A program made the translations under genes and the position numbers. The notes under the pieces are model-generated. The model made no database searches. It was not told where the DNA came from and worked only from the letters and a program-made list of their open reading frames with translations. From a virus (Duplodnaviria; Heunggongvirae; Uroviricota; Caudoviricetes): a DNA stretch of 64,000 nt. Below, piece after piece: positions 51,540 through 52,700 of the stretch (within the stretch, counting starts at the first letter, position 1; every line of letters begins with the position of its first letter). The stretch is taken from positions 12,292-76,291 of IMG/VR virus record IMGVR_UViG_2724679539_000005. The stretch is one strand, 5' to 3'.

Positions 51540-52700
51540 GTGTGATGTAGTGGATTACACAGGGGAATAGATTAAATGGTGTTCTGTTTATACAGGTTTA
51601 TTTGTTAGATCAACAATTTGGCATTTCTAAACAGATGTTTGAACGTTGCCAAATGTTTTGACAACACAAGAAAAGGGCTTGCTATGCCACGCATTACACG
51701 AAATAAGGCTATAAAAACAAAATAAATTTTAAAATTTGCACAAACGAGAGAACTCATTAAGAAACAAGCAGAACAATTTTTAGCCAACAATTTATGATGG
51801 TGTGTTGTAAGCCGCATTACACAAGGCTTTGCGAAAGTGATGTAAAAGTGAAGAAAGTAAGAATTGAACTTTTAAGCTACTTTTTCATTGAATTTTTAGT
51901 ATGGAATTACACAGGAATAAGTTAGGGATATTCTATGATTTACACAGGGAATATAGGGGGATTATGGCACACACATAGAAAGGCATTACACAGAGTGCTA
52001 TGTGACAAATGGATGTAACGAGAGGTTACATTCAGCTATCTGAAATGCTCTTTGTAAGAAAGTTGGTAGTAATGATATGTTACATAGACTAATTATTGAA
52101 TGTAACGATATTACACATCGGTAGTAACGATACGTTACATCGACAGATGATTGGATGTAACGAAAGGTTACACAATAAGACTATATTATTTATAATACTA
52201 AATAAAACTATATTAGATTATTAATTAGATCATAATAATATTCTTTATATCTATATATATGATCTTTTGCCTTCCGGCGTTAGCTTCACTCTCTGGCAAG
52301 CAGCCTTACTCCGCTACCTTTCGGGCTTCGTGGCTGGCCCGTTCCGCTCACACCGAAAGCAAAGCGTTACTTTCTTCGTGTAACTATCGTTGGCGGTAAC
52401 GCCCACGAAGAAATACTATTGCGCTGTGCGCAGAAGAGTAATCACCTAACCAATCATAGATTGCTTATGTGTTAACTCTCTCTACCTCTTAATTCCACTT
52501 CCTACATTTAATAACTCTCGTTATTCTCTGTAGTTGTGTAATTACTCGAAGAGAGAGCGGCTAAAGCTCAATTACACTCTGCTTTCCTCGTGTAATTTCA
52601 CTAAGCCTCAATACAATTCCGCTTCCTACATTCTGTAGTCGTGTAATTGTTTTCGGTGGAAAAGCCAGAGGCGACACCGAAAGAGAATTCTGATCTTATT
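51540..52700. repeat. dense non-coding repeat region: at least 12 copies of ATTACAC/GTGTAAT, five GTAACGA-N3-GTTACA palindromes, and longer direct repeats
   Basis: No ORF over about 1.9 kb (51500-53430). Palindromes GTAACGAGAGGTTACA, GTAACGATACGTTACA, GTAACGAAAGGTTACA between 52015 and 52170; direct repeats AATTCC(A/G)CTTCCTACATT...CTGTAGT(T/C)GTGTAATT at about 52490-52545 and 52615-52655; tandem GCGTTTTAGA x2 at 53165-53184. Confidence 0.7.

Follow-up and report, generated by a model that had tools for sequence, protein, structure and literature searches.

The DNA analysed here (the window) is a stretch of 64,000 nucleotides from IMG/VR record IMGVR_UViG_2724679539_000005, and all coordinates below are window positions unless a relative is named. 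Positions 48818-62070 form a 13.2-kb integrated element that lies at a tRNA-Thr gene (thrW), is flanked by ~45-nt repeats of the 3′ end of that gene and is most likely a phage satellite of Escherichia coli. The element is arranged in the order cargo gene (for a secreted protein of 183 amino acids, aa), 2.6-kb non-coding region, operon and, on the opposite strand, tyrosine integrase gene; the operon products are a 58-aa protein, a ribbon-helix-helix (RHH)-like protein, a 217-aa winged-helix-turn-helix (winged-HTH) protein, several small proteins, and capsid-E-like, tape-measure-like and baseplate-like proteins. A search with window positions 51400-53400 recovered relatives of the non-coding region from 706 of the 5,426 complete E. 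coli genomes, and a scan of one genome per bacterial species detected the element in E. coli only. Here we consider the repeat-rich stretch within this non-coding region (51540-52700), the centre of which, consisting of palindromes and an AT-rich segment, is probably the replication origin of the satellite. We draw on relatives read from E. coli genomes and from IMG/VR (designated by L-numbers), which fall into two lineages with different backbones.

Repeats in a long non-coding region

The stretch is AT-rich (30-45% GC), and its conserved core starts at ~51552, where homology resumes in relatives that have different cargo. A preliminary description, made from the sequence alone, had called the region non-coding and had set it apart from CRISPR arrays, and both statements stand: the equivalent 2.6 kb of L001, a 95%-identical locus, is without any RefSeq annotation; no open frame in 51540-53100 is conserved between the two lineages; and the repeats are irregularly spaced, belong to several motif classes and form no tandem array. 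Hidden protein genes in 51540-53100 were considered and rejected, since similarity is found in several frames and on both strands, as expected of conservation at the level of DNA. The main features are as follows.

51554..52116, plus strand: upstream heptamer cluster, six exact copies of ATTACAC and the variant TTTACAC (51941), irregularly spaced
52010..52172: type A iteron array, four copies of TGTAACGA-N3-GTTACA and one degenerate copy, start-to-start distances 54, 33, 22 and 33 bp
52097..52117: the degenerate fifth palindrome of this array, TGTAACGATATTACACA
52172..52262: AT-rich segment (88% A+T), putative DNA-unwinding element, holding two direct repeats of ~20 nt
52263..52690: hairpin-rich, lineage-specific segment ("module D"), four ATTACAC copies oriented -, +, -, -
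52491..52648, plus strand: 34-nt direct repeat in two copies, AATTCCRCTTCCTACATT-CTGTAGTYGTGTAATT
53171..53190, plus strand: tandem decamer GCGTTTTAGA, two copies, ~100 nt upstream of the operon promoter, in a block kept in all relatives

The heptamer ATTACAC occurs in 51540-52700 in ten exact copies, seven on the plus strand (51554, 51693, 51816, 51906, 51985, 52110 and 52571) and three on the minus strand (52536, 52590 and 52641); the preliminary figure of at least 12 copies within about 1.1 kb is reached only by including one-mismatch variants at 51941, at 52165 (GTTACAC, inside the iteron array) and at 52378 (GTTACAC, minus strand). An eleventh exact copy stands at 51211, and just three more are found in the other ~62 kb of the window. 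The number expected in the interval from 2,000 dinucleotide shuffles is 0.25 on average and 3 at most, an enrichment of 40-fold. All of the upstream copies point in the plus direction, and those of the downstream cluster (52536-52647) are oriented -, +, -, -. As for the five GTAACGA-N3-GTTACA palindromes described between 52015 and 52170, four are full and the fifth is degenerate; the form GTAAYGA-N3-GTTAC is present at 52015, 52069, 52124 and 52157 and nowhere else in the window (0.36 expected). The two direct repeats of roughly 35 bp seen near 52490-52655 correspond to a 34-nt unit at 52615-52648 that reappears at 52491-52543, the first copy being interrupted by an 18-nt insertion. The tandem pair previously placed at 53165-53184 is real and its true position is 53171-53190, ~6 nt away.

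That such repeats should be functionless, as decayed remnants or as chance low-complexity sequence in acquired AT-rich DNA, is hardly credible. The base composition would suit this explanation, as would the heptamer positions that are not conserved between lineages, but the heptamer lies 40-fold above shuffles, the region is 95-100% conserved within lineage 1, which is more than its flanking genes, and iteron and initiator types match perfectly (see below); the reading is already contradicted by these comparative data.

Iterons, AT-rich segment and putative initiator

The palindromes are spaced in multiples of ~11 bp, and an array of dyad iterons on one face of the helix beside AT-rich DNA has, judged by its layout, the anatomy of an iteron origin. 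At this position each relative carries four to five dyad-symmetric repeats of its own, and the cognate array was followed by an AT-rich segment in all of the relatives read. The repeats of these arrays are of five types.

Type A: TGTAACGA-N3-GTTACA, in the window and L002
Type B: GGAARTnRnTTCC, in L003
Type C: ACARAAnnnTGTTA, in L004
Type D: TAGSTCAnnGTGARCTA, in L008, L013 and L028
Type E: TATCAAnnnTGATA, four copies 18, 24 and 24 bp apart, in L035

The spacing in types A-D is 22-23 bp or multiples (33, 44, 54-55 bp), as iterons typically show, and 35 bp is also seen among the types other than A. Absence of the repeats from related elements, which the preliminary description had named as evidence against a function, is therefore not quite what is found: the palindromes are not absent from relatives, they are replaced by others in step with the initiator, a protein encoded by the third of the following operon genes.

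53283..53311, plus strand: operon promoter, TTGACA-17-AATAAT preceded by TG (11/12), with TTGACA invariant in nine aligned relatives
53370..53410, plus strand: leader hairpin followed by a U-run, between the operon promoter and the first gene
53438..53614, plus strand: 58-aa protein, encoded first in the operon, its two variants independent of heptamer type
53637..53804, plus strand: 55-aa RHH-like protein, three variants unlinked to iteron type
53858..54511, plus strand: putative replication initiator, 217 aa, with an N-terminal winged-HTH domain (type A), an acidic linker and the C-terminus EDFDLPF
54528..54806, plus strand: 92-aa lineage-specific small protein, after the initiator gene

The array adjoining the AT-rich segment matches the type of the initiator's N-terminal domain in all 29 loci, which comprise five cognate pairs; the match held first in 28 of 28 loci (types A-D, on both backbones), and L035 with type E brings it to 29 of 29. 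The two backbones are well separated, with capsid proteins that are 18% identical and unrelated sequence from the AT-rich segment to the operon, and each of types A-D is found on both. The comparison of the window with L002 illustrates the point: their iterons are 80% and their DNA-binding domains 91% identical, with 870 nt in between that are without similarity, hence iterons and domain travel together even though they lie 1.7 kb apart. Iterons and initiator domain thus appear to form an exchangeable specificity module, with at least five pairs on two backbones. The two proteins proposed earlier as binders of the repeats fare differently, in that the 53858-54511 protein is the predicted palindrome binder, its domain type co-varying with the palindromes over the 29 loci, and the RHH protein (53637-53804) is not implicated, its three variants following neither palindrome type nor backbone. 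One relative, L013, has a composite array (1730-2280) that runs A, D, C, E, B, AT-rich segment, D five times and a second AT-rich segment, together with a type D initiator; it may be a record of module exchange, or its additional sites may be decoys.

The initiator itself is modular: its DNA-binding domain varies, its linker (ALPxTDAHITPP...) is shared, and its C-terminal part is specific to the backbone. The window initiator matches PHROG families annotated as replication initiation or O-like with E=1.4e-6 to 4e-4, and PHROG initiator families match in all of the types tested (E=1e-4 to 1e-9). The C-terminal tip of the E. coli single-stranded DNA-binding protein (SSB), DDDIPF, recruits replisome and primosome proteins. 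All initiator variants end in ...DFDIPF, ...DFDLPF or ...YDS(I/L)PF (EDFDLPF in the window, 54488-54511), and this tail may mimic the SSB tip in order to recruit such proteins. The SSB-tip-like end provides a lead as to the means by which a protein of 217 aa that has no enzymatic domain could initiate replication, and family searches of the element's proteins recognised no other replication gene. In the mechanism that we propose, initiator dimers would occupy the iterons after excision of the element, the bound initiator would melt the AT-rich segment, and its acidic C-terminal tail would draw in proteins of the replisome or primosome that interact with SSB and belong to either host or helper phage.

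Several observations weigh against an origin at this site. The window initiator scores below the curated cut-off of the Pfam family HTH_36 (22.2 bits against 25; E=1.2e-4); a phage chimera with the same domain (see below) exceeds it at 44.6 bits; the initiator has no NCBIfam or PDB sequence match, its similarity to known initiators is weak, and a single-sequence structure model is unusable (mean predicted local distance difference test score, pLDDT, 45.5). Relative to its closest relatives, L010 and L011, the window initiator has an in-frame deletion of 43 residues, hence this copy may be impaired. The iterons lie in non-coding DNA 1.7 kb upstream of the initiator gene, unlike the arrangement in lambda, and DnaA boxes are absent from 50800-53440. 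The 29 matching loci share descent, such that 29/29 overstates their independence and a fair count is ~9 type-by-backbone combinations, all of which match. The origin model accounts neither for the heptamers nor for the most conserved part of the region, and binding, unwinding and replication are all deduced from sequence. Finally, a winged-HTH protein with cognate operators could equally be a repressor.

This last point can be developed into an alternative in which the palindromes are operators, the 53858-54511 protein is a transcriptional repressor or activator, the array controls a promoter in or beside the AT-rich segment or the state of the element, and the phage chimeras target a regulatory site. 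Dyad sites with a cognate winged-HTH protein suit repressors too, a promoter-like sequence (GTTACA-18-TATAAT, 52167-52196) overlaps the last iteron, and the family matches of the protein are weak. Those matches, however, are to families of replication initiators and not of regulators; four to five helically phased sites followed by ~90 bp of 88% AT are the anatomy of an origin; the SSB-tip-like C-terminus suggests contact with the replisome; the element is without another candidate replication gene; and the operon promoter, at a distance of 1.1 kb, stays the same whatever the iteron type. We consider the operator alternative quite unlikely and retain the origin as the preferred reading of the palindrome array. 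A DnaA-dependent origin was tried and rejected, as 50800-53440 contains no exact TTWTNCACA and no enrichment of it with one mismatch. The preliminary description had offered an origin, a partition or packaging site or a multi-site operator for the repeats as a whole; of these, the origin is well supported, by comparison, for the palindrome array, and a partition site finds no support, there being neither a ParA/ParB-type gene nor ParA plus RHH partition genes in the element and the RHH variants following no repeat type.

The sequences around the operon promoter add some further observations. The block TCGTTAGAACGCGTTTTAGAG(CGTTTTAGA), which contains the tandem decamers at 53171-53190, is present upstream of this promoter in all relatives; related decamers occur 150 nt further upstream (53006-53030), and in lineage 1 only, the last gene of the operon is followed by a degenerate copy in inverted orientation beside a terminator hairpin (60543-60563). 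An activator or a protein that loops DNA may bind these decamer blocks. The stem of the leader hairpin (53370-53410) is invariant and its loop variable in nine relatives of both lineages, and the terminator-like combination of hairpin and U-run suggests control of the operon by antitermination. An insertion of the IS3 family cuts short the type E initiator gene in L035 (strain MLI104K2; 3845-5058).

Heptamers and the hairpin-rich segment

The heptamers behave differently from the iterons, in that their type follows the backbone and not the initiator. Over the 1.7 kb upstream of the tandem-decamer block, lineage 1 has 7-10 copies of ATTACAC and 0-1 of ATTGCAC and lineage 2 has 1-3 and 3-5, respectively, with ATTGCAC mostly standing in lineage 2 at positions equivalent to those of the upstream ATTACAC cluster. 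In both lineages the upstream heptamers are in the plus orientation and the downstream ones mostly in the minus orientation. The upstream heptamer segment is 90-100% conserved among the 12 lineage-1 loci, and the hairpin-rich segment (52263-52690) is 99-100% identical in these 12 loci, with adjacent genes at 77-93%. The latter segment folds with z-scores of -5.4 (plus strand) and -6.7 (minus strand), its unrelated lineage-2 equivalent with -7.3 and -5.6, and a nested hairpin lies just past the last heptamer in all versions. Heptamers and hairpin-rich segment, which flank the proposed origin, together probably make up a second, backbone-specific cis-acting site for a protein, with a possible role in regulation, priming or packaging, in which 52263-52690 could provide priming or primosome-assembly sites, a backbone-specific packaging (pac) site or an RNA.

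Several identities for the heptamers were tried and rejected. They are not half-sites of the type A iteron, as their type tracks the backbone rather than the initiator, and they are not DnaA boxes. The RHH protein is not supported as their binder, its variant 1 being combined with three initiator types (A, C and D) and with both backbones, nor is the 58-aa protein, of which the window has the lineage-2 form alongside lineage-1 heptamers. A promoter or other motif of the helper phage is likewise rejected: heptamers occur at 0.2-0.4/kb in 50 kb of phi92 and in most of the smaller phage samples, against 8.6/kb here, and although a 3.7-kb sample of phage BME3 has ~1/kb (four copies), no sampled phage DNA has comparable clusters. 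The heptamers may be a multi-site operator, as had been suggested, if one without an assignable binder. The only candidate that can be named, and that tentatively, is the 92-aa protein (54528-54806), a distant homologue of the lineage-2 protein at the same position (22% identity, E=6e-8) that itself has no family match.

A satellite pac site is one specific form that this second site could take, either in the repeat stretch as a whole or in 52263-52690, with the repeats bound by a small-terminase-like protein of the satellite or of its helper. Small terminases bind arrays of short repeats, and the hairpin-rich segment follows the backbone lineage and hence the capsid genes, not the initiator. 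The putative pac site of the Vibrio cholerae satellite PLE has the same relative position, between the origin and the next gene cluster (PMC11417361). Against this, the only similarity to DNA of helper-type phages is at 51091-51136, outside 52263-52690; no terminase-like gene was recognised in the element; and with two lineages only, the association with capsid genes could be plain linkage. We regard a pac site here as unlikely. As regards the packaging site of the preliminary description, the sole phage-terminus-like sequence (51091-51136) lies upstream of the interval to which that site had been assigned.

A long structured non-coding RNA, with the heptamers and hairpins as its motifs and serving for example as protein sponge, replication primer or regulator, seems very unlikely to be the product of the region. 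A sigma-70-like promoter (51490..51517, plus strand; TTGACT-16-TATAAT, 11/12, from a consensus scan only) points into the repeats, fold energies lie 5-7 standard deviations below shuffles in both lineages, and the lineage-1 cassette and two lineage-2 cassettes differ in sequence but share the nested hairpin after the last heptamer. Both strands, however, fold equally well, as DNA dyads would; Rfam recognised no known structured RNA, either at the gathering score or when matches with E<=5 were admitted; in lineage 2 the changes in the first hairpin affect one arm and are not compensated on the other, and L016 has lost this hairpin; and there is no terminator to bound a transcript. The promoter lies outside the conserved core in the variable cargo-side flank, where it is kept in L002 and L004 and is absent from relatives with a different left flank, formed by a recombinase gene. 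Since lineage 1 is too invariant and changes in lineage 2 are one-sided or swaps of the whole cassette, covariation does not decide between structure in RNA and in DNA.

The remainder of the element is bounded and organised as follows.

48818..48863, plus strand: left attachment site, 3′ ~46 nt of tRNA-Thr (thrW)
60614-61978, minus strand: tyrosine integrase gene
62027..62069, plus strand: right attachment site, repeat of the tRNA-Thr 3′ end, matching L002 7555-7600

By blastn, position 48818 maps to L001 17404, within the annotated tRNA-Thr (17374-17449), and no intact tRNA was found in the window. CP4-6 of K-12, which shares the attachment site and a related integrase position, was considered and is a different element. 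Between the left attachment site and the non-coding core, 48864-51550 is a variable cargo slot that holds the 183-aa secreted protein in the window and a serine recombinase in L003 (8194-8745) and L035. In L002 a methyltransferase, a DUF262 protein and a HEPN-like nuclease are encoded upstream of the core (4101-7199, placed relative to the core only), likely constituting an anti-phage system. The satellite itself encodes the capsid-E-like protein, which together with a 608-aa tape-measure-like protein (57961-59787) and a 237-aa baseplate- or tail-fibre-like protein (59819-60532) makes up a gene set that is unusual for a satellite. A lambdoid prophage adjoins the element in an apparent tandem arrangement at thrW; this prophage has matches to isrK and C4 antisense RNA at 20279-20461 (Rfam, 58.7 and 74.8 bits), and a fragment of an integrase gene (62138-62398) lies just past the right end of the satellite. 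In several other E. coli relatives the non-coding region is interrupted by IS1 or IS3 insertions, from which it follows that many copies of the element are probably inactive.

Possible helper phages, candidate two-headed nucleases and known systems

The initiator domains reappear in the genomes of lytic phages. Window positions 53626-54344, which hold the RHH gene and the DNA-binding domain of the initiator, share 95-99% identity with the DNA of two lytic phages, inny and muut, and three lytic phages of the Stephanstirmvirinae encode two tandem satellite-initiator domains fused to a predicted GIY-YIG-type nuclease (MUG113/T5orf172).

Phage inny, gp184 (L005 3233-4336), 367 aa: domain A (95% aa identity), domain B (89%) and MUG113/T5orf172-type domain
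Phage Mt1B1_P17, QNJ49226 (L032 1414-2400): domain C (93%), domain B (83%) and nuclease domain
Phage muut, gp154 (L033 1228-2226): domain E, domain B and nuclease domain

Domain B is the second head in all three chimeras. The C-terminal domain of inny gp184 matches phrog_681 ("endonuclease") with E=3.9e-18, MUG113 exactly at the cut-off and T5orf172 below it. The first domain of the muut protein, initially an orphan, allowed a prediction, namely that it should belong to a satellite initiator with iterons of its own, and this was borne out: an HTH gene present in 113 E. coli genomes shows 100% identity to it at the DNA level, in strain MLI104K2 (L035) that gene is the initiator of a lineage-1 element, and the array beside the AT-rich segment of this element consists of the four type E iterons, a type previously known only as stray copies. 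Iteron-like DNA was not found in phages by blastn, and a pattern search of 68 kb of phage DNA found no cluster. The RHH protein of the satellite is 100% identical to muut gp153 (L033 1009-1176) and nearly identical to inny gp185, both encoded directly upstream of the chimeric nuclease genes, and the phages appear to have captured RHH gene and DNA-binding domain as one block. By analogy with the origin-directed nuclease Odn of the V. cholerae phage ICP1, discussed below, the chimeras are candidates for "two-headed" nucleases directed at satellite origins. Attack by lytic phi92-like and phAPEC8-like phages that carry such domain-nuclease fusions would then be the likely driver of diversity in the iteron/initiator module.

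Three independent links point to the Stephanstirmvirinae, with the phi92-like Justusliebigvirus and the phAPEC8-like Phapecoctavirus, as the phages with which the satellite interacts. The chimeric nucleases that they carry are the first of these, and the second is a short match to a phage terminus in the non-coding region.

51091..51136, plus strand: phage-terminus-like segment of 46 nt, 96% identical to the inner edge of the phi92-like direct terminal repeat

This match is found in ~60 phage records, all Justusliebigvirus-like; in phi92 it lies at 318-363, with the left direct terminal repeat (DTR-L) annotated at 1-343, and both genome copies are matched. The segment may be a mimic of a packaging signal. 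It is absent from relatives of the L003 and L035 type, which have a recombinase-type left flank, and it overlaps the start of a small open reading frame, of which L004 has an intact version (127 aa, 8688-9071) and the window one with a frameshift; both points make a packaging role less certain. The third link is the 608-aa tape-measure-like protein, the best phage homologues of which are tape-measure proteins of the Stephanstirmvirinae (31-36% identity, 134 records).

Taken together, we lean towards the view that this is an undescribed family of E. coli satellites that parasitises phi92-like and phAPEC8-like phages, whose iteron/initiator pairs, at least five in number, would have diversified in an arms race with two-headed nucleases, whose heptamer/hairpin segment would be a second, backbone-specific packaging or priming site, and which would constitute an independent counterpart, built from non-homologous parts, of PLE and the Odn nuclease of ICP1. 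The literature that we searched, with incomplete coverage, contained no description of the satellite family or of an Odn-like nuclease in coliphages. If true, a common E. coli satellite of large lytic phages has related non-coding regions in ~13% of complete genomes, and the 2-2.6 kb that current pipelines leave blank in hundreds of genomes would receive an annotation. The origin would be a swappable lock-and-key module, of which phages would have captured the key and attached a nuclease to it, and it is this wider system, with five or more origin specificities and two-headed phage nucleases, that we find most interesting. Conflict of this kind has so far been worked out only for V. cholerae PLE and phage ICP1; a tractable E. 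coli version would make it possible to test in what way attack leads origin specificity to diversify, whether two types of origin are cleaved by the phage enzymes, and whether satellites of this kind hold back phi92-like and phAPEC8-like phages, which are being gathered for use in therapy and biocontrol.

Among known systems, the nearest precedent for the ATTACAC arrangement is phage P4, by resemblance only. In P4, ori and crr lie apart from each other and hold octamers (type I iterons) in either orientation, to which the alpha primase-helicase binds; here too a short motif of 7-8 bp is scattered in direct and inverted orientation over two blocks. Unlike P4, the element has no alpha primase-helicase gene, and no binder of ATTACAC was identified. 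Like the iteron plasmids (of the P1, F, R6K and pSC101 type), the palindrome array has a spacing of ~22 bp, lies on one face of the helix and adjoins an AT-rich unwinding element; it differs from them in having no DnaA boxes and in being made of palindromes rather than directly repeated asymmetric iterons, and the element is integrated and presumably replicates only once induced.

The lambda origin, which sits inside the O gene, shares with the present region the succession of four to five dyad iterons, an AT-rich segment and then palindromic sequence. Like lambda O, the putative initiator is of the winged-HTH kind, with origin specificity predicted to reside in the N-terminal domain, and it matches O-like PHROG families, if weakly. 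It differs in its C-terminal part, which is unrelated and has the SSB-tip-like end, and the predicted origin differs in its position, in non-coding DNA 1.7 kb before the gene; a gene for a P-like helicase loader was not found.

PLE and ICP1 Odn are the functionally closest system, although they are not homologous to the one described here, which is known from sequence and is compared by analogy. In Odn, a DNA-binding domain resembling that of PLE RepA is joined to a T5orf172 nuclease, and the enzyme cuts the PLE origin at its iterons; the PLE origin and RepA co-vary as a module (PMC8263062). The non-coding region of PLE also carries a partial mimic of the ICP1 pac site (PMC11417361). The parallels are several. 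Both satellites have an origin, in E. coli a predicted one, within long non-coding DNA, and its iterons are semi-palindromic. Both initiators combine a DNA-binding N-terminus that varies with a C-terminal part that is conserved, and in both cases the initiator changes together with the origin, as one module, from one satellite backbone to another. In both, too, a lytic phage makes a protein in which an initiator-like DNA-binding domain is linked to a nuclease of the T5orf172 type, and a partial mimic of a phage terminus or pac sequence, a possible one in E. coli, is found near the origin. The differences lie in the parts. The initiator of the E. coli satellite is HTH_36-like or O-like and has no match to RepA_N, the family of the PLE initiator; the satellite has a tyrosine integrase and its own capsid-like and tape-measure-like proteins; the conflict would be between E. 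coli satellites and the Stephanstirmvirinae, with at least five specificity types as opposed to two; and each chimera has two tandem domains that are 83-95% identical to those of the satellites, compared with 42% between Odn and RepA.

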